42,002 nt of DNA from a virus. Its lineage: Duplodnaviria > Heunggongvirae > Uroviricota > Caudoviricetes. Of this stretch, positions 1,150-27,864 are shown one piece after another. Below the pieces are notes generated by a model that ran no database searches, was not told the origin of the DNA, and saw only the letters and a list, made by a program, of their open reading frames with translations. The DNA lies in the IMG/VR virus record IMGVR_UViG_2563366918_000005; one strand, given 5' to 3'. Each line of letters opens with the position of its first letter. The stretch's first letter is position 1. The position numbers and the translations under genes are program-made.

Positions 1150-1860
1150 GCCTATAAGGCTCTCTTACCAGCCGCGCCCTAACAGGCGCACACGATCTGA
1201 CATTTGCATCCAACTTCGTTACTTACGGCCCGTAAACGGGCTGCCCGGATAGGGAATCGATAACTGCTCTCCCATTTTATCCTCTTCAAGCTGGTGCTTT
1301 ATGTAATCCTGTATCTTCGCCGTGTTCTTACCCACTGTATCGACGTAGTACCCTCTGCACCAGAACTCCCTGTTCCTGTATTTGAATTTCAAATCACCAA
1401 ACTGCTCGTAAAGCATCAGACTGCTTTTCCCTTTCAGATATCCCATAAACCCGGATACGCTCATTTTAGGCGGGATCTCCACAAGCATATGGATATGATC
1501 TGCACAGCATTCAGCTTCCAGAATCCGTACGCTTTTCCACTCACACAGCTTTCTCAAAATACTGCCTATTGCTCTACGCTTCTCTCTGTAGAACACCTGT
1601 CTTCGGTATTTTGGCGCAAAAACTATGTGATATTTACAGTTCCATCGGGTGTGCGCTAAGCTCTTTTCGTTCCCCATTGGGACCCCCTTTTGATTTCTTG
1701 TTTGACACTTGCAGTTGCCAGACCGCAAGGTGTTTTAACAAATCAAAAGGGGTTTTAATAACTGGCTCAAAGCTGAAAGCTTTCCGGAACCCCCAGCCTA
1801 GCTGGGGGTTTTCTGTGCACAAAAAACCCTCTGTAGTAACAGAGGGTTTTGTTCATTCAT
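1150..1860 (-). mobile_element. IS200 (IS200/IS605 family), approximate boundaries
   Basis: The tnpA ORF matches IS200 TnpA almost residue for residue from memory (HTRWNCKYHIVFAPKYRR...HIHMLVEIPPK). Two characteristic left-end hairpins are at 1786-1812 (aacccccagc-ctag-ctgggggtt) and 1822-1850. Ends are placed by the ~707-bp element length, not seen as repeats. Confidence 0.6.
1219..1677 (-). CDS. tnpA: IS200 transposase TnpA (HUH Y1 transposase)
   Basis: 152 aa starting MGNEKSLAHTRWNCKYHIVF. HxH motif HIHMLVEI. Catalytic Y near the C-terminus. Confidence 0.85.
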   Translation of the reverse strand: MGNEKSLAHTRWNCKYHIVFAPKYRRQVFYREKRRAIGSILRKLCEWKSVRILEAECCADHIHMLVEIPPKMSVSGFMGYLKGKSSLMLYEQFGDLKFKYRNREFWCRGYYVDTVGKNTAKIQDYIKHQLEEDKMGEQLSIPYPGSPFTGRK

Positions 1861-1999
1861 AGTGCAGGGTCAAATCATTCCCACTCAATTATTTACGGAT
1901 ACCATAACCAATTGAGTGATAACATTTTTCCAAATCTCAATTTTTACCGTACCGTTTTATATACCGTCACCGGAAATCAGTACCATGAAAAATGCCATG

Positions 2000-2482
2000 C
2001 TATCTGGTCAGGGTGTCGTACTGTTTTTCACAGACTCTTCCGGCTTCGGCTGCCCGGTCAGCATACTCTGCCAGTTGTCTGTTTCTCTCGAGAGATTTAC
2101 TGAGCACGTCGGCAAGCAAAACTCCGGTGTCTGCGGCTGACGTCCCAGCGCCGACAATGGCGTTATACTGCCTGAGCTGCTCACGGATGGCAACGAGCTG
2201 TTGCTGCAACCGGCCAGCGCGAGCGGCAGCATCAAGAGCATCATTGCGCGCCTGGTCGATCCTCTGCTGCGCTTCACGTTCATTGATCGATTTCTCCTGT
2301 TCGTAGTGCTGACGAACTCTCTCATCTTCGGTTTTGCGGTCTTCTTTCGCCTGTGCATACCCGGCGTCGTACTGACGACTACCGTGTACATTCCAGGCAA
2401 CAACCCCTGATATGACCAGAACAGCAAGCACCGCCACGATAAGCAACTGTTTCCAGTATGCTTTTACGAATGCCCAGATCAT
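2000..2482 (-). CDS. i-spanin (Rz-like), N-terminal TM plus coiled coil
   Basis: TM segment [18 protein letters not shown], then a charged coiled-coil region. Lies immediately 3' of the endolysin with the starts overlapping. Contains an embedded lipoprotein ORF. Confidence 0.7.
2008..2244 (-). CDS. o-spanin (Rz1-like lipoprotein) embedded out of frame in the i-spanin gene
   Basis: Internal Met pair at 2244/2241, then [17 protein letters not shown], a lipobox with Cys. Pro-rich 78-aa product. Classic embedded Rz/Rz1 architecture. Confidence 0.6.
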   Translation of the reverse strand: MMLLMLPLALAGCSNSSLPSVSSSGSITPLSALGRQPQTPEFCLPTCSVNLSRETDNWQSMLTGQPKPEESVKNSTTP

Positions 2483-3108
2483 ACCGCCAGCACCTTACTG
2501 GCAGTGATGTACCGCGCTCTCCGGTCGTCGATGCCGTTCCTGCCACCATTGATAATCAAAGTTACACGTGCAATATCGCCGGTATACTTCATGCAACCTT
2601 TGCTGGAGAAGAACCACGCCGCGCTACGAGCCGCATATTCGTCCTGCGCTAACAGTTCAGGATTCTCCAGCAGGTCCACTTTCAGGCCGTTTCCGCAGTC
2701 ACGATAGTTATTCAAACCGGTAATCTGGATAAGTCCACGGCCTCGGTAATTCCAGCCGTCACCAGGGGAATTGTTCCCCATGCGTTTGCTGTACACCAGA
2801 TTGGCGATCGCTCGCTGGCGCTCGAGTGGCAATGGTGGTTCACCAGCACGGCGACCCAGTGCATTAGCCTGCCCCTGAGTGAGACGCCCAGCCCGAACGA
2901 AGTTAGCCAGACCGCTGACACTGTAGTTGAAATTCTCCTGCAATCTGGTGAAGCCCACAGATTCATGCCCGACCTGAGCAATAAACATTGCCAGATCTTC
3001 TGGTTTGCTGATACCAAACTCTTTCATCGCAGAAGTTATATGCGAGAACCAGCGTGCGGCCAGCGCCTCGCTAATACCAGCAGCTCGCTGGAATTGTTTA
3101 ATCTCCAT
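2479..3108 (-). CDS. Endolysin, glycoside hydrolase family 19 (chitinase-like lysozyme)
   Basis: [21 protein letters not shown]...QVGHESVGF...[13 protein letters not shown] is GH19 phage-endolysin-like. Start chosen at the internal Met (3108) rather than the ORF-track 3339, because the region upstream of 3108 is occupied by the holin-like gene. Confidence 0.75.
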
Positions 3109-3406
3109 GTTTAGACCTCGATATTTTGAAAATCTGAACAACGTTACCGCGTGTTTTAATAACCGCGGCAAGCATGACAGCGTTGATAATGACCTCAGAT
3201 AAATCCACAGCCATTGGCGTGCGTAACCAGATTGCATAGACGACACGAACAGGAATACTGGCCGCAGCAACAATAAGGAAATAAGCAAGCCACCCTCCCC
3301 ATCTTCGATGTTGAGAGCCGTTACGCCGGAATGTGACAACGCGAATTGCTATGCCAGTACAAATAACTGCATTGGTGATAAGCAAAAAAAACTCATGCGT
3401 TACCAT
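3098..3406 (-). CDS. Holin/antiholin-like small membrane protein
   Basis: 102 aa with ~3 hydrophobic helices. End overlaps the endolysin start. Confidence 0.45.
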
Positions 3407-3809
3407 CGTCTTTTCTCCCCGGAATTAAATCGCGTGGATTGTCTGAACGGTGGTAGAGCCATATACCAATACGCACAGCGACAATTGCTGACACGAATGC
3501 GCCAGCAGAGAAAACAATACCTTTTTCAAAAGAGTCCTGCGTGATGGTAGGGATCAGGCTGGCTATGCCGATAAGAATTGATGCTGCTGGTTTGTAGAAA
3601 AGAAGTCCGCAGAGAAAGCTGAGCATCGACAAGAGTACGCGACGACGAATTGGATACTCTACCGCAGAGGTAACAAAAATTACCGCGCCAGCAAGAGCAC
3701 CGAGCGCCACCTCTGGCGGAACGCCTACGATAACCGCAGCAAGAGAGCTCACACTAAGCCATTGATTTAAAGACTCAGTTGTTATGTTAACCGACATAGC
3801 ACACACCAT
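3393..3809 (-). CDS. Holin-like membrane protein (start at 3809 or 3797)
   Basis: 3-4 TM segments (LAAVIVGVPPEVALGALAGAVIFV, LLSMLSFLCGLLFY, ILIGIASLIPTI, VFSAGAFVSAIVAVRIGIWLY). First gene of the lysis cassette. Confidence 0.45.
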   Translation of the reverse strand: MVCAMSVNITTESLNQWLSVSSLAAVIVGVPPEVALGALAGAVIFVTSAVEYPIRRRVLLSMLSFLCGLLFYKPAASILIGIASLIPTITQDSFEKGIVFSAGAFVSAIVAVRIGIWLYHRSDNPRDLIPGRKDDGNA

Positions 3810-3972
3810 TTTTTTTGTACATATCGAACCTCTTCACTTACAGATCACCACACACAACAAACCATATATGTTTAACCATCAGATATTCTGAAATAACTAT
3901 CAATTCATTGGTTTTTGATGACAATATTCATAAACAACCATAAATGTAAGGCGGTTTATTAGTTGCCAAAAT

Positions 3973-6579
3973 TTATTTCCTGCAAACTCCAGATGATGTT
4001 AATCCATCAAAAATAACCTGCACTCTGGCAATAACAACATCAACTCCAGAAGTCGTTTCACTTGCATAACCAAGTTTTATTTTAGATACAATATCCTGAG
4101 TAAGTTCAGATATTTCAGTTTCTGCAATGTTACCAGAGGCCATGTGATTATCGTATGCCATAGAATGAATTCCATTATTGACATCGATTGAACTAGTATG
4201 TTTGTGAAAAATAGATGGGTTTACCTGAAACGAATTTGAACCGATAAGATCAGAATATACTCCATTCATCACTGCAGTACAGCGTGGAATATTATTATCG
4301 GTTATTGTCATATGCAGACGGTTACCAGTTAACCCCTCACCAAGTGTGACATAATACGCCAATTCTCCACCTGCATATTGTTTCCCCTCAACAATAACAG
4401 TAATCCCTCTTAATTTCTGATTAGCTAGCAAAAACTTATTACTGTCTATATAGCATTTATTTGCGGAACCAAAAACAGCCCCTTCTAAAATATCTGATGA
4501 ATAGGAATAAATAAGGTCACCTGAAACAAAGGAAAGAATATCAGATACGTTTCCTTTTTTAGATAAGTTAGGAGAATAGCTATTAACTATTTCATATTGT
4601 CCTGTGATAAAATCAAGGTAAACGCCATCAGTTTTCATCTCTTTAAAGAAAATGCTATTAAAGCATCCATCAAGAACCGGTGGATATATTCTAGAGCTTG
4701 CATAAGCTGTTGGGTGATTCTTATTATTACCACTACCAGGCGAATAAACATCTTCGTTAGTCATTGACTTTTTAAGCTTAACAGGAATCATCGGCTGCAT
4801 ATCAATTTTGCAGTTCCCTGAACCACCGATGCGAGGATAAAATAAACCACCAAACCTTACAATATTACTACTGAATAGTATTTCGTTATCGTTAAGTGTT
4901 ATCTCAACGAAGTTTCCAATAAGTTTAAATTCAACTGAAAACAAACCAAGTGGAGCAGATAATTTAACAATATTGCGCATAAAAACACCTACAGTCCCTG
5001 TTGATGCAGTATAGTGTGTGGTTTCAAAGGCAGAGCCTGTATATTTCAAGTTAATGAAATTATTATGGTATGAAGACAATTGAAATTGAATCCCAGAACT
5101 AAGGATTTCAATATCTACAAATTGAATCCTTACGGAGTAAGCATATGATAAATCTTCATATTCATAAGGCAATGTAACATCTTTTGAAATAGTTGCCCTC
5201 ACATAATTACCAGAAACCACATCAATCCCATCACGTACAGCATTAAAGTAACGATTAAAATCAATAAGCCCAGCGCCAACATACTGCGCATATGACCGAG
5301 TCCATCCTGCCATTGCGTTTCGTCCATTCTGAGCTTCTAAACTGCTAAATTCAGAGTCACTTGTGGTACTTGATGGGAGGATATTTGTACAAAAAATAAT
5401 TTCAGGCATTGAAGTAATATCATTCAGTTCAGCCATCAATTTAAAAAAAGTTTTCTGCGGGAAGTTACCAACATCCCAACCATCTCCGTCATTCATGCCA
5501 AAAGCAATAATAACAACATCAGGGTTAATATCACGAATGTAATCAATCCAGCGTCTGTTCGTGTCTGAATACCATGGGTACTGTGAGTTATAAGAAGTAA
5601 TTGCTGGTGTATCTTTTCCAAGGTCATAGTACCTCATTCCACCAATTGCTCTGTTAAATAAAGTAGAACTTGGGAATTTCTCTTGCAAAACTCTCTTAAG
5701 ATGAGCGGCAAAAATGCTTGATCGATCCACTGTGCTTATATTATATGGGGCACTTAAGCTGTCACCAACTAACACTATTTTTGAGTTAGGCCTTGATAAT
5801 CTCTCAAGTGTTTTAGATGTGACTAAACTGCAGGAATTAATGAACTGAGTACTATTTAGCATCTGTTCAAGTGTATCACCAAATCTGGTACCAACGTATG
5901 ATGATCCGTTGACACTTGCTAGCTTAAGGCATAAATCAGCAGTATCTGTAATTGAAAAAATAGGAACAGGACGTCCTAAACTGTCATACCCCTGAATTGA
6001 GTTTGCCCTAGAAGATGCTGATGCCATTTCGCTTACTATCTCAGGGAAGCGGAGTGTTTTAGATATGTTGCTGTTAATAACTCCTTTGATAGATGAGTCT
6101 GTATATTTCTTCGTGGAAGCGTCCTGAGGAAATAATGGATCATCAAGGTTACGAATACGATTGCCGAGTGCATCGTAGTAAGTGGCACTAAATGATGGTT
6201 TACGAAGAGCCAGCCGAGCCATGCTTTTGACTAACTGGATCAGCATCGTTAGCTTATCAAAAGCATCCTCATGCACTTCCGCAAAGAACTTACCCTGATT
6301 GCGCAGATCAGTTTCCTGTGTAACCGGTAGCTCTCGTGATATAGAAATCTTATAGCCATTGGCCAACGCCTTCGACAATATTACATTTCCACCATTGTAT
6401 CCTCCGGCCCCGGTAACTATATAATCAGTATCAAGAGTCAGTACGGTGATATTTTCATGAATATCAACAACCTGCACAATCAAATCAGATTTATTGAAAA
6501 CCCTAAAGGCATACGGAAACGATGTCGTAACGCCGTTACCGGTGTATTCGTTGTGGTCAACTTCGGTTGAGACCGTCAT
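3973..6579 (-). CDS. Tailspike: epsilon15-type N-terminal particle-binding domain, divergent central part with SGNH/GDSL esterase motifs, AT-rich C-terminal domain
   Basis: N-terminus MTVSTEVDHNEYTGNGVTTSFPYAFRVF matches the epsilon15 gp20 tailspike N-terminus from memory. Internal VLVGDSLS (GDS block) and FGMNDGD (GxND block) are typical of SGNH hydrolases. GC content drops markedly after the first ~350 nt. Confidence 0.7.
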   Translation of the reverse strand: MTVSTEVDHNEYTGNGVTTSFPYAFRVFNKSDLIVQVVDIHENITVLTLDTDYIVTGAGGYNGGNVILSKALANGYKISISRELPVTQETDLRNQGKFFAEVHEDAFDKLTMLIQLVKSMARLALRKPSFSATYYDALGNRIRNLDDPLFPQDASTKKYTDSSIKGVINSNISKTLRFPEIVSEMASASSRANSIQGYDSLGRPVPIFSITDTADLCLKLASVNGSSYVGTRFGDTLEQMLNSTQFINSCSLVTSKTLERLSRPNSKIVLVGDSLSAPYNISTVDRSSIFAAHLKRVLQEKFPSSTLFNRAIGGMRYYDLGKDTPAITSYNSQYPWYSDTNRRWIDYIRDINPDVVIIAFGMNDGDGWDVGNFPQKTFFKLMAELNDITSMPEIIFCTNILPSSTTSDSEFSSLEAQNGRNAMAGWTRSYAQYVGAGLIDFNRYFNAVRDGIDVVSGNYVRATISKDVTLPYEYEDLSYAYSVRIQFVDIEILSSGIQFQLSSYHNNFINLKYTGSAFETTHYTASTGTVGVFMRNIVKLSAPLGLFSVEFKLIGNFVEITLNDNEILFSSNIVRFGGLFYPRIGGSGNCKIDMQPMIPVKLKKSMTNEDVYSPGSGNNKNHPTAYASSRIYPPVLDGCFNSIFFKEMKTDGVYLDFITGQYEIVNSYSPNLSKKGNVSDILSFVSGDLIYSYSSDILEGAVFGSANKCYIDSNKFLLANQKLRGITVIVEGKQYAGGELAYYVTLGEGLTGNRLHMTITDNNIPRCTAVMNGVYSDLIGSNSFQVNPSIFHKHTSSIDVNNGIHSMAYDNHMASGNIAETEISELTQDIVSKIKLGYASETTSGVDVVIARVQVIFDGLTSSGVCRK

Positions 6580-6683
6580 GTTAAATCTCCAGATAGTCGC
6601 AGCACCCGTTGCGCCGCATATCTGGTTATTCTATTACCTGAAAAACCATATATGTATAGAAAGACTATAAATACCAATAGATA

Positions 6684-6698
6684 TTACCTTTATGGTAA
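6684..6698. promoter_or_regulatory. Dispersed palindrome copy 1: TTACCTTTATGGTAA (perfect arms; extended ATTACC..GGTAAT)
   Basis: Divergent region between tailspike and the LexA-controlled genes. Confidence 0.6.
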
Positions 6699-6735
6699 TT
6701 TGCAAAACGTGCTGGATAGCAAACAAATTATTTGA

Positions 6736-6755
6736 TACTGTATAAATATACAGTT
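6736..6755. promoter_or_regulatory. LexA (SOS) box TACTGTATAAATATACAGTT overlapping the promoter of the 85-aa gene
   Basis: CTGT-N8-ACAG with an AT-rich centre, near-identical to the TACTGTATATATATACAGTA consensus. Sits 20-40 nt upstream of SD GGAG (6763) and ATG (6775). A TTGATA -35-like hexamer is at 6732. Confidence 0.75.
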
Positions 6756-6774
6756 ATTGCATGGAGAAGATAAG

Positions 6775-7032
6775 ATGCAGCGGTATCACTATCCACTGGA
6801 AGACGGATTTACCGAAAGGATTCACACGCCGGGAGGCGTCAGGTCACTGGTGGAGGGATCGCACTTGATGAAATTACTCCGGGATCTCGATAAGGATGGA
6901 TTTAATGTCGATGGCCCACTTGCCGAACTGACTGCACTGATTAACTACGTCACCAGCTCACAGATGTCTATGCGGGATCTGCAAACACATCTCGACTATT
7001 GTGCCGAACAATTACGAAAACAAACCAGATAA
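6775..7032 (+). CDS. Small protein (85 aa) paralogous to the C-terminal domain of the downstream Bro-N/antirepressor-like protein
   Basis: SD GGAG 8 nt upstream. IHTPGGVRSLVEGSHLMKLLRDLDKDGFNVDGPLAELTALINYV..RDLQTHLDY aligns with IHSPSGVLGLTENSLLMNLLNQLQEDGHDVSGAAAELTTMFCYI..RDIQTHAEY of 7347..8039. Confidence 0.6.
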   Translation: MQRYHYPLEDGFTERIHTPGGVRSLVEGSHLMKLLRDLDKDGFNVDGPLAELTALINYVTSSQMSMRDLQTHLDYCAEQLRKQTR

Positions 7033-7063
7033 GGTTTGCAATTACCAAGTGGAGTGCTTATAT

Positions 7064-7078
7064 TTACCTTTGAGGTAA
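7064..7078. promoter_or_regulatory. Dispersed palindrome copy 2: TTACCTTTGAGGTAA, nested in a larger inverted repeat GGAGTGC(7051-7057)/GCACTCC(7088-7094)
   Basis: Perfect arms. Confidence 0.6.
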
Positions 7079-7106
7079 ATTTACATCGCACTCCTCTTGT
7101 GCCATA

Positions 7107-7192
7107 GTAATCGGGCACTGGCAAAATCCAGTGCCGGGATTGGTCTCCCGGATTACTACAGAGGCACATATGCCGCATAAGCGGTTTTTTTT
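7107..7192 (+). terminator. Multi-hairpin structured element ending in a T-tract (attenuator/terminator between the 85-aa gene and the ant-like gene)
   Basis: Outer stem gtaatc(7107-12)/gattac(7151-56). Inner 8-bp hairpin ggcactgg-caaaat-ccagtgcc (7114-7135). Small hairpin ggga..tccc. Then ccgc-ataa-gcgg plus T8 (7172-7192). Confidence 0.45.
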
Positions 7193-7346
7193 ATGTGTAA
7201 AGCGCACCTATTCTATGGTGGGCTGTGTGGGGGCACCGAAAGGTGCGCCGGGTTCCTTTGTAGCCGGTAAGACCAACTCTGCACAGTTCACCACCATCTG
7301 ATTGGTCTCAGCGGTGGTGATTAACCTAACTACAAAGGTGATCGCC

Positions 7347-8039
7347 ATGAATACCAAACCTTCCATCTTTTCCTTTGAGTCATCCTGCCAGATCCGTATG
7401 TTCATGATTGACGGAGAACCTTGGTTTGTCACCAAAGATGTGTGCAATGCTTTGAATATTGATGTTACACAAGCGAGAAAACTTGATAAAAAAGGCTGGA
7501 ACAAAAAGGGGCTGTATTCAATACAGACCCCTGGTGGAATACAAGAACTATCCATCGTTTCAGAATCAGGTCTCTACATCCTTATTCTGCGTTGCAAAGA
7601 GGCAATGACTGAGGGAACGAGAGCATTCAGATTTCTTGAATGGGTTACAGGCGAGGTTCTTCCTCAGATCCGCCGCACCGGAAGTTACATTAAAAACTCG
7701 CTACCGCAGGAAGAACGCATAAAGATGGTTGCCGACCAGGTAGCCAACGCCACGGCGTCAGCAGTAATGCAGGCGATGAAGATAGAGAACAAAACCTACA
7801 ACGCCCCGCTGAAGCCCGGCTACCGCAGCCTGATTCATTCCCCGTCTGGTGTTCTCGGCCTGACGGAGAACTCACTGCTGATGAATCTGCTGAACCAGTT
7901 ACAGGAAGACGGGCACGACGTATCGGGCGCGGCGGCGGAGCTGACCACCATGTTCTGCTACATCGTCGGTGTGAGCAAATGCCTGCGTGATATCCAGACG
8001 CACGCGGAGTACATCAACGACAAAGCAGGGTTCTTCTGA
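7347..8039 (+). CDS. Bro-N domain antirepressor-like protein (Ant/KilA-N family)
   Basis: SD aaggtga upstream. N-terminus FSFESSCQIRMFMIDGEPWFVTKDVCNALNI is the Bro-N/AntA signature. Its position next to the tailspike mirrors P22 immI (ant). Confidence 0.65.
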   Translation: MNTKPSIFSFESSCQIRMFMIDGEPWFVTKDVCNALNIDVTQARKLDKKGWNKKGLYSIQTPGGIQELSIVSESGLYILILRCKEAMTEGTRAFRFLEWVTGEVLPQIRRTGSYIKNSLPQEERIKMVADQVANATASAVMQAMKIENKTYNAPLKPGYRSLIHSPSGVLGLTENSLLMNLLNQLQEDGHDVSGAAAELTTMFCYIVGVSKCLRDIQTHAEYINDKAGFF

Positions 8040-8104
8040 CGGGCGGCGGCACAGGGATGTGCCTTTAAATAATTCTGTACAGATTGCAGGTGAATAGCTT
8101 ACTA

Positions 8105-8119
8105 TTACCTCACGGGTGA
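8105..8119. promoter_or_regulatory. Dispersed palindrome copy 3: TTACCTCACGGGTGA (1 mismatch)
   Basis: Between ant-like gene and the 179-aa gene. Confidence 0.45.
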
Positions 8120-8156
8120 TCCATAGCGATTAGGCACCGATACAGGAGGAGCCCAC

Positions 8157-8189
8157 ATGAGAAAATTTGACGAGTACGAAGGCGTTTAA
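8157..8189 (+). other. 10-codon upstream ORF (MRKFDEYEGV) with strong SD AGGAGG
   Basis: aggagg at 8145-8150, ATG 8157, stop 8187-8189. Lies ~20 nt before an intrinsic terminator. Confidence 0.3.
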
Positions 8190-8208
8190 CATTCGGATAG
8201 TTTAATGA

Positions 8209-8231
8209 CGGGGCCATTAGGCCCCGTTTTC
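8209..8231 (+). terminator. Strong intrinsic terminator/attenuator 18 nt upstream of the 179-aa gene SD
   Basis: cggggcc-atta-ggccccg 7-bp GC stem followed by tttt. Confidence 0.65.
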
Positions 8232-8248
8232 ATGTCTGGAGACAGTTT

Positions 8249-8788
8249 GTGTTAAGTGAAGAAATGCAATTTGCCATGGCTGTGGCTCAAATCGTAAGTG
8301 CAGTCGCGGTTTCGCTTGGCTTGTTCATAGCTATCGCTACTATTATTTATAATGTAAATACAGCGAGAAAAGTACACACTTCAGTATTCCTTGGTGAAAG
8401 CAGGTTTGATGTAGATTATAAGAAAGGCCTATCTACTATGCGCCGCATTCACGAATCGAACAAATCATTCCGCTCTTATATGTATCCAAGCAATGGGCAG
8501 GCTGATCTTACGGATGAAGAAAAGACAGAGAAGAGAGAAATAATTTACTGTCTAGGTTTCTACGAACGCATGGCTGTGAGCGTGAAGCGGAAAACTTATG
8601 ATGAGACCATGATTAAGGAAGTATTTTACAGCTCCGTTGTAAATAACTATCAGATTGCGCTACCTCTTATACAAGCCATTAGAGAAAAAGAAAACATAAA
8701 CACATATTTTAAAGAATATGAATGGTTGGCCACACGATGGAAGGATTGCCCATTGAAGGATAAATCCCCGTGGTACAAGTTTTGGTAA
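8249..8788 (+). CDS. AT-rich single-pass membrane protein (N-terminal TM, cytoplasmic domain); moron, candidate superinfection-exclusion/abortive-infection factor
   Basis: GTG start with SD ggaga 7 nt upstream (alternative ATG at 8264). TM FAMAVAQIVSAVAVSLGLFIAIATIIY. Markedly lower GC than its neighbours. Sits in a sieA-like position of a P22 immI-like block. Confidence 0.55.
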   Translation: MLSEEMQFAMAVAQIVSAVAVSLGLFIAIATIIYNVNTARKVHTSVFLGESRFDVDYKKGLSTMRRIHESNKSFRSYMYPSNGQADLTDEEKTEKREIIYCLGFYERMAVSVKRKTYDETMIKEVFYSSVVNNYQIALPLIQAIREKENINTYFKEYEWLATRWKDCPLKDKSPWYKFW

Positions 8789-8810
8789 GCCAGCGCTGCG
8801 GGCTTTTTTT
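8789..8810 (+). terminator. Rho-independent terminator after the 179-aa gene
   Basis: gccagc-gct-gcgggc imperfect stem followed by T7. Confidence 0.5.
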
Positions 8811-8882
8811 GTGGACGAAACAAAAGTCAGTGCTACACTCATTGACGCCACATTGAGGTGGCTTATAGATGGAAATTTCACA

Positions 8883-9044
8883 ATGAAAAAAGCATTTGCT
8901 GCACTGTTCGTTTTGTTGTCTCTGGTAGCTTCAACTCAGGCTTTTGCCGGTCGTTGTCAGCACGACAGCGATACTGCCGCTGACGGCTCCCGCTGCGGTG
9001 GGCGTTCTGCGGATTCCCGCCCGGGTGGCGGTGGCATTCGTTAA
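8883..9044 (+). CDS. Possible small secreted Cys-containing peptide (53 aa precursor)
   Basis: Textbook Sec signal MKKAFAALFVLLSLVASTQAFA|G then a 31-aa Gly/Ser/Arg-rich tail with 2 Cys. Weak SD. Ends in the A-tract of the convergent terminator. Confidence 0.25.
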   Translation: MKKAFAALFVLLSLVASTQAFAGRCQHDSDTAADGSRCGGRSADSRPGGGGIR

Positions 9045-9066
9045 AAACAAGGCCGCGAAAGCGGCC
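9043..9066 (-). terminator. Intrinsic terminator of the minus-strand late (ejection/membrane protein) operon
   Basis: ggccgc-gaaa-gcggcc perfect hairpin. T-tract on the minus strand (aaaaacaa on plus, 9043-9049). Confidence 0.65.
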
Positions 9067-9067
9067 T

Positions 9068-9079
9068 GTGACATGTCAC
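9068..9079. repeat. Perfect 12-bp palindrome GTGACATGTCAC (copy at the distal end of the ejection-protein operon)
   Basis: Identical to 30044..30055. Sits beside the terminator hairpin. Confidence 0.5.
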
Positions 9080-9372
9080 GTCCCTTTTCTGAATGATAGC
9101 CATTCGAAAAATGATGACATTCCACCGCAGACAACAGCAAAGATGATCCCACCAAAGAAGAGAATGCCAGCCTGCCACCACTCCCACCGCCATACATCCA
9201 CAGCGCCAACCATACCAACAATCGCTCCAACAAATGGAATATAGCTCACGATGAAAGCAATGGGGGCTGCAATTATCCAGTGCAATCCCCACCATGATTC
9301 AAGCCCAGCCATAATTGCTGCCAACTGAAAAAGACCAACGACGATATAAACAATGAATCCTATAGCTTGCAT
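9076..9372 (-). CDS. Small integral membrane protein (3 TM), last gene of the ejection-protein operon
   Basis: 98 aa, highly hydrophobic with Trp-rich loops. SD aggtga 3 nt before the ATG. Confidence 0.5.
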   Translation of the reverse strand: MQAIGFIVYIVVGLFQLAAIMAGLESWWGLHWIIAAPIAFIVSYIPFVGAIVGMVGAVDVWRWEWWQAGILFFGGIIFAVVCGGMSSFFEWLSFRKGT

Positions 9373-9384
9373 GTAGTCACCTAT

Positions 9385-9558
9385 TTACCCAGTAAAAATC
9401 AGAGGCCTCCCCTCAATAAGGCTTGCAACAAGAACTATTCCCTGCACAACAAAGATGAACCAGCAAATAGCTTGAGTCTGAGGGTTAAGAAAATATTTGT
9501 AGCGGTCAATAAATAACAACCCACCAAAAATTATCACACTCAAAATAATTAAAAACAC
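9385..9558 (-). CDS. Possible 57-aa two-TM membrane protein (below ORF-track cutoff)
   Basis: GTG start 4 nt after SD AGGAAG, which overlaps the stop of the 824-aa gene. MFLIILSVIIFGGLLFIDRYKYFLNPQTQAICWFIFVVQGIVLVASLIEGRPLIFTG. Confidence 0.3.
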   Translation of the reverse strand: MFLIILSVIIFGGLLFIDRYKYFLNPQTQAICWFIFVVQGIVLVASLIEGRPLIFTG

Positions 9559-9567
9559 AACACTTCC

Positions 9568-12042
9568 TTATTGCGGAGTGACATCCTGAGGTCGCCACCA
9601 GTATGTCTGGTTAAACTCTTTCTTCGAACGTTGCTCCATTTTACGCAAATAACCTGGTGAAAAATACTCCTGCATCTGGTTAAAGATCATGTGATCGAGA
9701 GCCGCCTTTAAGTACCAGAGATTCGCACCTGGCATCAGACCTTTCCCCAGCTTGACCAGATCACCACCAGTCTGCTCATTCTTCCCTTCCACAGCATTTA
9801 ACGGTATGCCCTGAGCAATCTTCACTACGTCATCAACCAGACCAGCTACCGGGCCAAGCATCGACGCCAGCGCGCCGCTTCCGTACCTAGTGTGATCTGA
9901 CAATAAAAAGTCACCGTAAAGGCCAAGACCACCACCTTTCAGTAGAGCACCAAGCCAAAATTTAGCAGCATCTTCTCCTGTCATCTCACGAGGATTACGA
10001 CCAGACGCAAGGTCGTTAAGTTGCTGCGACAAAGCGCCAAGAATGGTCGTACTGGCAATAAACGTCGCAATATATGCCGCACGCCCACCAGCAGACGGCA
10101 TACCCATAGCGCGTGACCAGTGACGCATAACCACCGAGATAGGGAACGATTTAAACAGGAAAACACTTCTCGTTAATTCACCTTTCCATGTTCCACGCTG
10201 AATACCAGAACCGGTTATCAGTTGCTCACGTGCTCCCGGTGTAATAACAGCCATATCAACTTCTTCAGTTACGGCACCGAGCAGTTTACGCATTGCCTCA
10301 AATTTCACGCGTTCAGGCTCACCAAGATGTTTAACTGCTGAATCAGGGATACGCATAATGCTTTCCGGTGTCAGCATCGTATTATTACCGTTCCCCCAGT
10401 CCTCCTGTTGCGCCAGCTTCCATACGCTCCAGTCTGTGTCAGTAATTCCTTTGCTTTTCAGGATACGAAAATCAGAGTCATCGAGGCTACGAAGGTCTGG
10501 TGTCCGTGACACTACTTCTCCCAGGCTTCCCATCATGGTTACGCCATAGGCGCGCTTGTGCGCATCTGACCATGCTGTAAGCCCACTGGCACGCATTACC
10601 GCCGTTGCCGCCCAGCGAGACACTGACGGCCCCATATTATCCATCGCCCAGCGGTTAACGCTGCCAAGTAGAGATTCCATCGCCAGACCAGCGCGGCGCG
10701 CCCGCGCAAGTTCTGTACGGTTCGTTGGGTCCATAGCTTCAAGCTGGTTGCGGAATAACTGGTTCATTGGAAGGTTGGTAACCTTCGCAGACAGATACAT
10801 GGTTCCAAGATCAGAGAACGATGACAGCAACGCGGATCCGAGTCTGCTGGCAACCAGCCAGTTGCGGATATTGTCAGACCATCGCGCGATGTGCGGATTT
10901 GCTACAGGCTGTGTCTTTCCGGAAATAAAGTTGTACAGATTCTCTGTGTTGTTCGCCAGCCGCTCGACTTTACCGGTTTTACTCGGGTTAGCTGTTGCCG
11001 TTTCTGCCTTCACCTGATCAAGAAGAGAGCGGAAAACATGATCTGGGTTTGGGCCATATGTTTCCACCAGTGCAATATCTTTACTGATACCTTCCAGGTG
11101 ACCGACCATGATTTCCCATAGAGAGCGATCGCCATAAAGTTGCTGATATTGCAGATAGGAATCTGCATCTTTGAAATGTATCTGTCGTGATGCATTACCA
11201 CGGTTAGCACGTGCGCCGGAAATTCGCATTCCGGTATCAGTAAGCTTATTCAGCCCACCAGTAGCGATCGTGTTATAAGCCTCTCCAAGAAATGCAGACA
11301 ACTCGGCATCGTTCATCAGTTGTCCATCGGCTCGGATATAATATTTGCGATCCAGCTTACCTATAACATCGCTAACCCACTTATCCTTTGATACCGCCCC
11401 AACCTTTTCCATAGAATGATGTTGAGGGATCCCCCAGTTTTCGAGATAGCCAATGTCCCCGCCAGCATCATTAAACCGGCGGCGCAGTAGATCTGTCACT
11501 TCTCTCCACGCCTTAGCACCTTTTCTTGCTTTAGCATTGCCAGTATTTTGTCCTCGCATTTCATATACCAGGTCACGCACGCCAGCTTCATCTTCAAACA
11601 GGCCAAAAAAGCGAGGATCAACTGCTTCAAATGCCTCCTGCAATTGACTCAATGCATAATCACGAGTGGCTTTTGTTCTGGACTCAACAGAGAGGAAATT
11701 CGATTTACCGTCTGCATTAAAAGCAATAGTACGGTTAAGAGCGCCAAGTTTCCCATCAGCCCCTTGATAGCTATTGATAAATTTATCCAATCTCTGACGT
11801 GCGGCTATAGTGAGGGCCACACGACGTTTCTTTAATGCCGCTTCTCGCTGTAATTCTTCAGATGCCAATTGTGCTGCTCGATATAGCCGCTCTGATTCGG
11901 AAAGTTGTCTCCACGACATCGGGTCATCACGAGCAATGGAGCGCATATTTCGATAAATGCGGTCTTCAATGTTCTGTATTTCTCGCGCCGTTAACGTGCG
12001 CTGCGCCGCCTGCTGAACCGCTTGTATACATTCCTGTCTCAT
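9568..12042 (-). CDS. Internal virion/ejection (DNA-injection) protein, 824 aa
   Basis: Large alpha-helical structural protein within the late operon between the tail and the moron block. No catalytic motif recognised. Confidence 0.5.
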   Translation of the reverse strand: MRQECIQAVQQAAQRTLTAREIQNIEDRIYRNMRSIARDDPMSWRQLSESERLYRAAQLASEELQREAALKKRRVALTIAARQRLDKFINSYQGADGKLGALNRTIAFNADGKSNFLSVESRTKATRDYALSQLQEAFEAVDPRFFGLFEDEAGVRDLVYEMRGQNTGNAKARKGAKAWREVTDLLRRRFNDAGGDIGYLENWGIPQHHSMEKVGAVSKDKWVSDVIGKLDRKYYIRADGQLMNDAELSAFLGEAYNTIATGGLNKLTDTGMRISGARANRGNASRQIHFKDADSYLQYQQLYGDRSLWEIMVGHLEGISKDIALVETYGPNPDHVFRSLLDQVKAETATANPSKTGKVERLANNTENLYNFISGKTQPVANPHIARWSDNIRNWLVASRLGSALLSSFSDLGTMYLSAKVTNLPMNQLFRNQLEAMDPTNRTELARARRAGLAMESLLGSVNRWAMDNMGPSVSRWAATAVMRASGLTAWSDAHKRAYGVTMMGSLGEVVSRTPDLRSLDDSDFRILKSKGITDTDWSVWKLAQQEDWGNGNNTMLTPESIMRIPDSAVKHLGEPERVKFEAMRKLLGAVTEEVDMAVITPGAREQLITGSGIQRGTWKGELTRSVFLFKSFPISVVMRHWSRAMGMPSAGGRAAYIATFIASTTILGALSQQLNDLASGRNPREMTGEDAAKFWLGALLKGGGLGLYGDFLLSDHTRYGSGALASMLGPVAGLVDDVVKIAQGIPLNAVEGKNEQTGGDLVKLGKGLMPGANLWYLKAALDHMIFNQMQEYFSPGYLRKMEQRSKKEFNQTYWWRPQDVTPQ

Positions 12043-25973: not shown

Positions 25974-26050
25974 GTGGCATTAGCTCAGTTGGACAGAGCA
26001 ACCGCCTTCTAAGCGGTTGGTCGCAGGTTCGAATCCTGCATGCCACGCCA
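25974..26050 (+). tRNA. tRNA-Arg (anticodon UCU), phage-borne
   Basis: Hand-folded cloverleaf: acceptor GTGGCAT/ATGCCAC, D stem GCTC/GAGC, anticodon stem ACCGC/GCGGT, loop CTTCTAA (UCU), T arm GCAGG-TTCGAAT-CCTGC, discriminator G, CCA encoded. Confidence 0.8.
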
Positions 26051-26138: not shown

Positions 26139-26212
26139 GCAGGACGCCATTGCGATGACTTCATGCTGTAAACCCGTGCAGCCACGGAAGGCATAACTCA
26201 TTGCTTCCAGTT

Positions 26213-26236
26213 CGCCCGGTTCGCCGGGCATTTTTT
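26213..26236 (+). terminator. Second intrinsic terminator
   Basis: cccgg-ttcg-ccggg followed by cattttttt. Confidence 0.6.
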
Positions 26237-26253
26237 TGCTTGATGACCGCAAA

Positions 26254-26268
26254 TTACCTTAAAGGTAT
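26254..26268. promoter_or_regulatory. Dispersed palindrome copy 5: TTACCTTAAAGGTAT (1 mismatch), overlapping the SD of the IS1-split gene
   Basis: Directly observed. Confidence 0.45.
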
Positions 26269-26551
26269 AATCATGAAAAACTTCAAGGTAATTAGCATGT
26301 TTGAATCGTTCAAAGAGCTGTTTTTATCTACTGCCAATACTGCCGTGAATCGAGCCAAAAACCCTGTGCTTGGTGCTTTTGTTATGTCCTGGTGCGCCTT
26401 CAACTGGAAATCAATTCTTTATCTATTTTTTAGCAAATCAAACATAATAGATAAAATTTCATATATCTCAGATAACAGCACATGGAAAACTGTTATGTTT
26501 TATCCATGCTTATCTGTAATTGCTATCTGCTGCCTAGGTAATGACTCCAAC

Positions 26552-27055
26552 TTACTGATAGTGTTTTATGTTCAGATAATGCCCGATGACCTTGTCATGC
26601 AGCTCCACCGATTTTGAGAACGACAGTGACTTCCGTCCCAGCCTTGCCAGATGTTGTCTCAGATTCAGGTTATGCCGCTCAATTCGCTGAGTGTAACGCT
26701 TGCTGATTACGTGCAGCTTTCCCTTCAGGCGGGATTCATACAGCGGCCAGCCATCCGTCATCCATACCACGACCTCAAAGGCCGACAGCAGGCTTAGAAG
26801 ACGCTCCAGTGTGGCCAGAGTGCGTTCACCGAATACGTGCGCAACAACCGTCTTCCGGAGCCTGTCATACGCGTAAAACAGCCAGCGCTGGCGCGATTTA
26901 GCCCCGACGTATCCCCACTGTTCGTCCATTTCCGCGCAGACGATGACGTCACTGCCCGGCTGTATGCGCGAGGTTACCGACTGCGGCCTGAGTTTTTTAA
27001 ATGGCGGAAAATCGTGTTGAGGCCAACGCCCATAATGCGGGCGGTTGCCCGGCAT
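26552..27055 (-). CDS. insB: IS1 InsB (expressed as an InsAB' frameshift fusion)
   Basis: ...[25 protein letters not shown]... is typical IS1 InsB. Confidence 0.85.
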
Positions 27056-27249
27056 CCAACGCCATTCATGGCCATATCAATGATTTTCTGGTGCGTACCG
27101 GGTTGAGAAGCGGTGTAAGTGAACTGCAGTTGCCATGTTTTACGGCAGTGAGAGCAGAGATAGCGCTGATGTCCGGCGGTGCTTTTGCCGTTACGCACCA
27201 CCCCGTCAGTAGCTGAACAGGAGGGACAGCTGATAGAAACAGAAGCCAC
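26974..27249 (-). CDS. insA: IS1 InsA
   Basis: [40 protein letters not shown]... Confidence 0.9.
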
Positions 27250-27864
27250 TGGAGCACCTCAAAAACACCATCATACACTAAATCAGTAAGTTGGCAGCAT
27301 CACCTGCTGCCTATTACCATGGGTAAACAATATCATTAACGTATGGCAAGCAAAGCCTCTTGATAATAATGACTCAATCGAAAATCACCTGAAGGCAAGA
27401 AAAATCCAGCGTGAAACAAGACTGCAGAGGTTATTGGCTAAAAAAGATGTTACATACGACAAAGTTAAGACTGGCGCGGAAAAAGACATCCAAGAGATGA
27501 AAGAAGAGATTATTCGATCAAAGAATAGTATGGGGGAATTGACTGCCGAGTTGAAAGCTAAAGATGACGAATTGAGATCCGCCAGTGCTCAGTTAGCAGC
27601 TCTAAATCATTCATTAAAAGAGATATCGGAAACTCTTGGAAGAATGAATGAGGCATATAAGACCCTCCAAAATGATTTCGACGAATACAAACTCAAATAC
27701 CCTGAAAAATCTCAAATAAAAAGCCTTGAACTTGGCAACGGCCAAACAATTAGCAACTTTTTGGAGCAACACAACTTATCCGGATTAAAATCTGGTAAGC
27801 CAAACGTTTTTAATAACTTTGGTGTTCTATCTGGATTATCAGGTTTCGAGGATAAAAATAAAGA

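Follow-up and report, generated by a model that had tools for sequence, protein, structure and literature searches.

A mosaic tailspike of an epsilon15-like Escherichia coli prophage with a predicted SGNH O-acetylesterase and lectin-like sandwich domains

The tailspike gene and its modules

The stretch analysed here, referred to as the window, comprises 42,002 nucleotides of a tailed-phage genome (IMG/VR record IMGVR_UViG_2563366918_000005) and harbors a tailspike gene close to one end. According to the list of open reading frames (ORFs), this gene is a single uninterrupted ORF at window positions 3973..6579 on the minus strand, with an ATG start, 868 codons and a stop codon. Its product is probably the single spike of an epsilon15-like (Uetakevirus-type) temperate podophage that resides as a prophage in E. 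coli. Judged from sequence and a structural model, the protein probably unites an epsilon15-type attachment module with an imported SGNH O-acetylesterase flanked by lectin-like sandwiches. RefSeq/PGAP names the product 'SGNH/GDSL hydrolase family protein' (WP_001546907.1, 100% identical in NZ_AP022222.1), and its full-length PHROG family, phrog_17220, carries the label 'unknown function'. The gene, its modules and its predicted active-site motifs are as follows:

3973..6579, minus strand: complete tailspike gene (ORF list; full-length match to phrog_17220; 100% identical copy in NZ_AP022222.1)
6587..6590, minus strand: GGAG ribosome-binding site, 8 nucleotides upstream of the ATG (sequence reading)
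5878..6579, minus strand: residues 1-234, epsilon15-type phage-binding (virion attachment) module (67% identity to the VB_ST_E15 tailspike; PHROG and PDB matches; 42.5% guanine plus cytosine, GC)
5797..5877, minus strand: residues 235-261, linker or neck at the junction of the conserved and the imported modules
5227..5796, minus strand: residues 262-451, first part of the SGNH esterase domain, with blocks I-III and strand β5
5758..5766, minus strand: block I, G272-D273-S274, with the predicted nucleophile Ser274 (coordinates verified by translation)
5638..5643, minus strand: block II, G313-G314 within NRAIGG, predicted oxyanion-hole glycine (family alignment)
5488..5499, minus strand: block III, G361-M362-N363-D364, with the predicted oxyanion-hole Asn363 (family alignment)
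5221..5235, minus strand: R449-D450-G451-I452-D453, conserved acidic motif before the insert, D453 being a candidate for the third triad member
4774..5226, minus strand: residues 452-602, all-β lectin-like (ConA/LamG-type) sandwich inserted in the SGNH block V loop
4645..4773, minus strand: residues 603-645, second part of the SGNH domain, with the block V His and a C-terminal helix (helices 375-379 and 392-408 of the model)
4711..4719, minus strand: N621-H622-P623 within GSGNNKNHPT, with the predicted catalytic His622 (family conservation)
3976..4644, minus strand: residues 646-868, C-terminal lectin-like β-sandwich, probably the distal receptor-binding module (strands 419-625 of the model)

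Attachment module and junction

The N-terminal residues 1-234 share 67% identity with the 1070-residue tailspike of the epsilon15-like Salmonella phage VB_ST_E15. This alignment stops at residue 230-234, and no similarity to the VB_ST_E15 protein is found beyond residue 234. Many PHROG families of tail proteins match residues 1-170 up to 1-295 (e.g. phrog_1640, residues 1-254, E 1e-120), and the tailspike N-termini 28lx and 9m4c of the PDB match the module as well. At the DNA level, several epsilon15-like phages are similar over the first 345-435 nucleotides. Some part of the gene is matched in 494 of 5426 complete E. coli genomes, nearly always the 5' part only, at 80-90% identity. Taken together with the epsilon15-type alignment, these 5'-only matches indicate an attachment module about twice as long as previously estimated: the first-pass annotation had correctly recognized the epsilon15-type N-terminus and had assigned about 115 residues to it, while its real extent is about 234. 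Across residues 235-261, identity to homologues of the receptor-binding part amounts to 4-36%, and the exchange point between the two modules lies at about this neck.

The SGNH esterase domain and its active site

The sequences VLVGDSLS (residues 269-276, including Ser274) and FGMNDGD (residues 360-366, including Asn363) had been read in the first-pass annotation as GDS(L) and GxND blocks of the SGNH type. Pfam and the fold search agree with this assignment. PF13472 (Lipase_GDSL_2) matches residues 271-447 with an E value of 2.4e-9 and 38.4 bits, above the curated cut-off of 32.9, and the domain adopts a three-layer α/β/α flavodoxin-like fold in the model described below. Plain phmmer against the PDB detected no SGNH structure; such structures emerged only from the fold search.

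At the predicted active site, Ser274 is conserved in 181 of 181 aligned family representatives and Asn363 in 187 of 187 relatives, while the putative oxyanion-hole glycines Gly313 and Gly314 occur in 170 and 160 of 185, respectively. His622 is present in 132 of 134 relatives and its neighbor N621 in 131 of 134. Three acidic residues are candidates for the acid partner of His622, namely D440 (187/187), D453 (186/187) and D450 (173/187). The position three residues before the His, which is N619 here, is occupied by Gly in 91 of 133 relatives and by Asp in no more than 10. Of the triad anticipated beforehand, the Ser within GDS is in place, whereas the DxxH block formally fails because of N619. 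As a yardstick DxxH is too narrow, since the active gp66 protein of the Pectobacterium phage Possum shows the same arrangement.

The usual block V is not contiguous in this protein: an insert of about 150 residues sits between the nearly invariant RDGxD and GGNxxNHP motifs. The resulting signature, RDGxD-[~150-residue β-sandwich]-GGNxxNHP, is found here and in 53 of 53 aligned homologues and is conserved across 187 representatives. In silico deletion of residues 454-603 raised the PF13472 score from 38.4 to 45.2 bits (span 2-173 of 178) and that of PF00657 from 23.3 to 31.4 bits (span 1-203 of 208), and both GDSL profile matches then run across His622. Such a gain in score and length is as predicted for an insertion into the block V loop. 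From its sequence, the tailspike would be expected to act as an esterase.

Predicted structure and sandwich domains

An AlphaFold2 model of residues 234-868, built on the alignment obtained from a search of 5.8 billion proteins, reaches a mean predicted local distance difference test (pLDDT) value of 90.4 and a predicted template modelling (pTM) score of 0.88. It shows three units, an α/β domain, an all-β domain embedded within it and a C-terminal all-β domain. A fold check of the SGNH region and of the C-terminal β-rich part, proposed with the first-pass annotation, recovered SGNH esterases and lectin-type sandwiches. The matches to the former include, with the score in last place:

6hfz, acetyl-mannan esterase CEX, 17.9
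8gld, peptidoglycan O-acetylesterase Ape1, 16.2
4k3u, peptidoglycan O-acetylesterase Ape1, 16.0
4qnl, tailspike gp63.1 of phage G7C, 13.8

Among the Foldseek matches in the BFVD database, the Possum tail spike ranks second (E 2.5e-32, 580 columns), and the tail spike of phage PP99 is also found. The best structural matches of the two sandwich domains are CBM40, LamG/neurexin and galectin domains, BoNT Hc and domain 4 of AbnA. A β-helix depolymerase was detected neither in the Pfam and PDB searches nor in the secondary structure of the model.

Identity to close relatives amounts to 50-59% in the SGNH core, 27-47% in the insert and 20-36% in the C-terminal domain. The latter is common only to the close subfamily and is replaced in distant relatives. 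Since identity declines along the module from the SGNH core to the C-terminal domain, the data are consistent with sandwich domains that carry the specificity.

Relatives and base composition

The search of 5.8 billion proteins returned the protein's own E. coli cluster (143 member sequences) and 55 relatives, in which the module is fused to other tail adaptors: PF18668 (TSP1/Gp66 N-terminal), PF12571 (tail collar) and PF03906 (T7 fibre). A HMMER scan of 1.84 billion representatives yielded 281 clusters (50% identity) at E≤1e-10. In most of them the alignment extends over the SGNH domain, the insert and block V, and only about 11 of the 150 representatives listed are matched in the C-terminal domain as well.

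Among 50,697 phage genomes searched by tblastn, only three groups of relatives are found. Full-length homologues are encoded by Phapecoctavirus anhysbys (43% identity) and Kayfunavirus BDX03P1 (40%), and the N4-like Pectobacterium phages Possum, Horatius and Arno152 give a partial match (E 2e-25 for Possum). In BLASTP, Possum gp66 aligns with residues 258-648 over 430 columns (27% identity, E 2e-34), and the alignment keeps GDSIS, NRAYGG, FGMND, RDGLD and GGNGINHPS as well as the insert. The anhysbys homologue (MN850648.1, 5809-7884) is one of several adjacent tail-fibre/spike genes. Its GC content of 48.3% differs from that of its flanks (~39%), so that it looks imported there too. Phage anhysbys was isolated on K-12, which lacks O-antigen.

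A fall in GC content at the junction had been noted in the first-pass annotation. The drop is real; it is graded rather than a sharp step. The N-terminal module contains 42.5% GC, the first part of the SGNH domain 39.1%, the insert 33.8% and the C-terminal domain 35.0%, with values of 48.7% for the whole prophage and 50.7% for the structural genes. Overall, the imported module has 35.9% GC, and GC at third codon positions drops from 0.40-0.44 to 0.19-0.30 within it. The homologous modules in anhysbys, BDX03P1 and Possum have 48-52% GC, which rules out low GC as a family trait and makes it a property of the module's lineage here. The composition supports import of the receptor-binding module from a low-GC source. 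No close donor of such a low-GC module is present in the protein databases searched (5.8 billion proteins; 1.84 billion representatives). Horizontal exchange, as first proposed, is upheld, though not as a demonstrably 'recent' event; outside the E. coli cluster, identity to the closest relative is 45%. The description of the protein as a mosaic tailspike with a foreign, AT-rich SGNH receptor-binding region agrees with sequence, profiles, predicted structure, fold search and homology to Possum gp66.

Distribution, hosts and possible receptors

The 3' 1908 nucleotides, which encode the receptor-binding part, are carried by 37 of the 5426 complete E. coli genomes. None of these 37 carriers has a disrupted ORF, and identity over the 1908 nucleotides is 99.5-100%. 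The window is 99.996% identical over 26.5 kb to strain WP8-S17-ESBL-12, apart from an insertion of the insertion sequence (IS) IS1. This strain has an O15 O-antigen cluster. At least six carriers are of type O15 and at least 21 of type O102, two O-antigen clusters that are unrelated to each other. The O15 and O102 alleles of the spike differ by 10 nucleotides, corresponding to five synonymous and five conservative non-synonymous changes, and this distribution may be one of simple clonal inheritance. The clinically important ST405 clone is usually of serotype O102:H6.

O-antigen as the substrate, which had been envisaged at the outset, finds no specific support in these data: the lysogens have at least two unrelated O clusters (O15 and O102), neither with an annotated acetyltransferase gene. 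Candidate substrates are a capsule, enterobacterial common antigen (ECA), colanic acid and an O-antigen with unlinked O-acetylation. In E. coli at large, both ECA and colanic acid carry O-acetyl groups, and the colanic acid genes wcaB and wcaF are annotated. As for O-unit acetylation in O15 and O102, nothing was found in the literature, and the text of one review gives neither O-unit structure (PMC7685785).

The exact-match strain (NZ_AP022222.1) harbors a group-3-type capsule locus at pheV (813700-837300), with kpsD/M/T/E-like genes, glycosyltransferase genes, ugd, rfbBDAC, kpsC/S-like genes and a gene for an 'alginate O-acetyltransferase AlgX-related' protein. Region 2 of this capsule locus occurs in 46 of the 5426 genomes, nine of which are tailspike carriers. 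The capsule as a shared receptor is not supported, as only nine of 37 lysogens possess region 2 and one more possesses it partially.

Prophage context and mosaicism

The prophage is inserted between guaA and yfgI of E. coli, with a tyrosine integrase gene at its far end. The tailspike gene separates the tail/injection genes from the lysis cassette, its neighbors being T7-gp14-like core and injection genes, followed by capsid, portal and terminase genes, on one side and two holin genes, a GH19 endolysin gene and a DUF2514 spanin gene on the other. No glycan- or receptor-modifying gene is annotated in the prophage, and the slot adjoining the spike is occupied by BRO-N, DUF4760 and small ORFs. 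These form a block of opposite orientation that separates the tailspike gene from the injection genes:

6757-9044, plus strand: 91-residue ORF, BRO-N protein (7302-8039), DUF4760 protein (8249-8788) and 77-residue ORF

The 91-residue ORF and the BRO-N protein resemble each other at their C-termini, which points to a partial duplication. The slot of the DUF4760 gene is taken by a YafO-family toxin and its partner in the prophage of the O102 lineage.

Further elements are located at a greater distance from the spike. A tRNA-Arg is annotated within the prophage at about 25974-26050 of the window (L001 530-606), where it is flanked by the small/large terminase region and the portal gene. IS1 lies at 26537-27303 (InsA/InsB ORFs at 26552-27249, minus strand) and has no counterpart in the prophage of NZ_AP022222.1, which is otherwise 99.996% identical. 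The element splits a 272-residue hypothetical 'moron' gene between the terminase and tRNA-Arg, the halves of which remain as plus-strand ORFs at 26201-26617 and 27434-27868. A tnpA gene of the IS200C family (1219-1728, minus strand) is situated between the prophage end, where homology to the excised form stops at about 1873, and yfgI; the O102-lineage copy of this locus lacks it.

The record of Escherichia phage BP9 (PP488543.1, a 138-kb Vequintavirus) contains at 5001-10318 a 99% identical prophage fragment next to an IS2 InsA gene. It corresponds to about 1873-4292 plus 39295-42002 of the window, i.e. the last 320 nucleotides of the tailspike gene and the lysis genes, followed directly by the integrase and early genes, and represents the attP-spanning junction of the excised circular form. 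This junction exists only in excised/circular DNA. Whether the fragment was truly captured by BP9 or is a chimera of the assembly, its presence implies that a sister prophage excises.

Between O15 and O102 prophages, the tailspike and the BRO block diverge by about 0.2-0.4% (window 4000-8000), while the lysis cassette (2250-3999) is mosaic, with about 2-9% divergence by 250-nucleotide bin and up to 22 differences per 250 nucleotides. The chromosomal yfgH-yfgI flank is 2% diverged between the two lineages. A recent transfer specific to the spike is not claimed, as the low-divergence block also spans the BRO genes; the comparison demonstrates mosaicism but not transfer of the spike alone.

Proposed function and alternative explanations

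In the reading considered probable, residues 1-234 would attach the spike to the tail, and the usual β-helix depolymerase body would be replaced by the imported receptor-binding module. This module would function as an SGNH carbohydrate O-acetylesterase (residues 262-451 and 603-645), with its catalytic-loop region split by the sandwich 452-602 and with a second sandwich at 646-868. The sandwich domains may bind the surface polysaccharide. Ser274 is predicted to serve as nucleophile and His622 as general base, and Gly313/314 and Asn363 would form the oxyanion hole, with D453, D450 or D440 as putative acid partner of the His. O-acetyl esters would be hydrolysed and the glycan backbone left uncut. 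As has been put forward for G7C, Possum and PP99, the virion may then become committed to the cell surface through binding coupled to deacetylation.

Several observations weigh against this reading. The canonical Asp of DxxH is absent, and the acid partner of His622 is assigned by inference only. The AlphaFold2 model is a monomer, and the trimeric state of the spike is presumed. No acetyltransferase gene is annotated in the O15 or O102 clusters of the lysogens, so that an acetylated substrate in the natural host is presumed as well. Finally, the prophage copy of the window, with its IS1, may not be a fully active phage.

It is possible, though not the expected case, that the architecture is the one described and that the substrate is another O-acetylated glycan (capsule, ECA, colanic acid or a glycan with unlinked O-acetylation), i.e. 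a 'key polysaccharide' common to serotypes. The near-identical allele (10 nucleotides, five amino acids) in lysogens with unrelated O clusters (at least six O15 and at least 21 O102 of 37), both clusters being devoid of an annotated acetyltransferase gene, speaks for such a target, as do the AlgX-related gene in the capsule locus of the exact-match strain, the general O-acetylation of ECA and colanic acid, and the annotated wcaB and wcaF. Conserved key polysaccharides have moreover been proposed for podophages in Letarov's review (PMC10743462). However, only nine of the 37 lysogens have capsule region 2, the present host of a prophage need not display its receptor, the two lineages could have inherited or gained the prophage independently of their current O/K types, and the characterised relatives Possum, PP99 and G7C act on O-polysaccharide. 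A relic in a decaying prophage, no longer used in infection, is unlikely. IS1 inside the window copy, IS200 at the prophage border and the confinement of the prophage to two clonal backgrounds would fit a relic, whereas an ORF intact in 37 of 37 genomes at 99.5-100% identity over 1908 nucleotides, alleles that differ by five synonymous and five conservative changes only, and the attP-spanning junction of a 99% identical prophage in the BP9 record would not.

The remaining alternatives concern the catalytic role of the domains. That the SGNH domain is a dead scaffold and the spike a pure lectin-type adhesin seems very unlikely. It would fit the missing DxxH, with Asn or Gly at the position three residues before the His, and a block V broken by 150 residues, and esterase domains on spikes can be of minor importance: 12 Å separate the catalytic Ser787 from the closest ester bound in the crystal structure of the epsilon15 protein gp20, whose esterase is reported to act slowly and to be seemingly dispensable for infection (bioRxiv 10.64898/2026.07.31.742079). 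A dead site would, however, not be expected to keep Ser274, Asn363, His622, D440 and D453 each at least 98% conserved in about 134-187 diverged relatives, and Possum gp66 is active with the same arrangement. A spike that both deacetylates and depolymerises, with one of the sandwiches itself cleaving the glycan, is highly improbable. The sandwiches belong to the ConA-like lectin/glucanase fold class and epsilon15 gp20 does combine an esterase with an endorhamnosidase; yet the best structural matches here are binding modules and not enzymes, no glycosidase or lyase family is found among the Pfam matches, and Possum gp66 left the polysaccharide backbone intact.

Beyond the esterase tailspike considered probable, a wider proposal may be put forward tentatively. 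The module could represent a distinct, undescribed SGNH subfamily, comprising about 280 clusters (50% identity) of which almost none is annotated, with a substrate-binding lectin in the block V loop, a triad of Ser274, His622 and Asp453/Asp440 assembled across the insert in place of DxxH and, in this phage, a serotype-independent acetylated glycan as target, which would explain the occurrence in both O15 and O102 lysogens.

As for significance, current understanding is not overturned. Among temperate phages, spikes equipped with an esterase only increasingly emerge as a frequent alternative to depolymerase spikes (G7C, Possum, PP99, Klebsiella prophages, the epsilon15 petal), and the present epsilon15-like phage dispenses with the endorhamnosidase altogether, relying on an imported, predicted deacetylase module. 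The unannotated phrog_17220 and the RefSeq 'SGNH/GDSL hydrolase family protein' are tied to a tailspike role, and the signature GDS...GMND...RDGxD-[sandwich]-GGNxxNHP would allow the annotation of tail proteins that are still uncharacterised, several hundred in number. The hosts include O102 genomes. The spike's specificity for its receptor could be relevant to typing or therapy with phages.

Comparison with known systems

The closest characterised system is gp66 of phage Possum (Cbunavirus, Schitoviridae). Nuclear magnetic resonance showed that this protein cleaves the 2-O-acetyl group off the rhamnose of the host O-polysaccharide without damage to the backbone, and the recombinant protein without residues 1-196 is a trimer (PMC9569702). 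Both proteins share the motifs GDS, NRAxGG, FGMND, RDGxD and GGNxxNHP and a sandwich ahead of the catalytic His, and both are virion receptor-binding proteins without a β-helix. They differ in the N-terminal adaptor, which is of the epsilon15 type here and of the TSP1/gp66 type with a helical extension in Possum, and in the C-terminal domain. Possum is a lytic N4-like phage of Pectobacterium, whereas the spike described here belongs to a temperate epsilon15-like prophage of E. coli. Deacetylation is proven for Possum gp66; for the E. coli prophage spike it is predicted by homology. The lectin domain inserted in the catalytic loop and the non-canonical triad, common to both, appear to be undescribed so far.

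Phage G7C gp63.1 (4QNL), cited as precedent in the first-pass annotation, resembles the spike in fold; sequence homology of the esterase domains is not supported, as no profile-level similarity exists. It was also rejected as a family member: the profile comparison aligned only the TSP1/gp66-type adaptor of other members. Its SGNH domain is contiguous, with GDSITDG, GWNDS and a canonical DTTHP block V, whereas block V is interrupted here and DxxH is missing. Furthermore, gp63.1 attaches via gp66 branching and the present spike via an epsilon15-type N-terminus. G7C gp63.1 is an analogue in fold and lifestyle.

Epsilon15 gp20 itself consists of a GH90 β-helix endorhamnosidase, a β-sandwich and a C-terminal SGNH 'petal' (bioRxiv 10.64898/2026.07.31.742079). 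The two spikes have a homologous N-terminal module and the same genome position, and each contains an SGNH esterase domain; the GH90 β-helix body of gp20 has no counterpart here. In the petal, a β-barrel is inserted after Gly813 of block II and before block III, whereas the insert sits in block V here, and the petal has a block V D1035-x-x-H1038 that is missing here. Descent from the petal (gp20 residues 778-1070) was rejected (hhalign probability 0.3%, E 0.19).

An SGNH esterase in place of a depolymerase is likewise found in receptor-binding proteins of Klebsiella prophages, in gp41 of Acinetobacter phage Aristophanes and in the PP99 spike, and two of the Klebsiella proteins hydrolyse para-nitrophenyl acetate (PMC13123978). 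These proteins, compared by fold search only, belong to other families, with 'brush-like' C-termini of tail fibres or SASA-type domains. Neisseria Ape1 and Roseburia CEX (14-16% identity) are cellular SGNH acetylesterases with carbohydrate-binding sandwiches and not virion proteins. Set against these systems, the protein is a new example of an esterase tailspike, an already known type.

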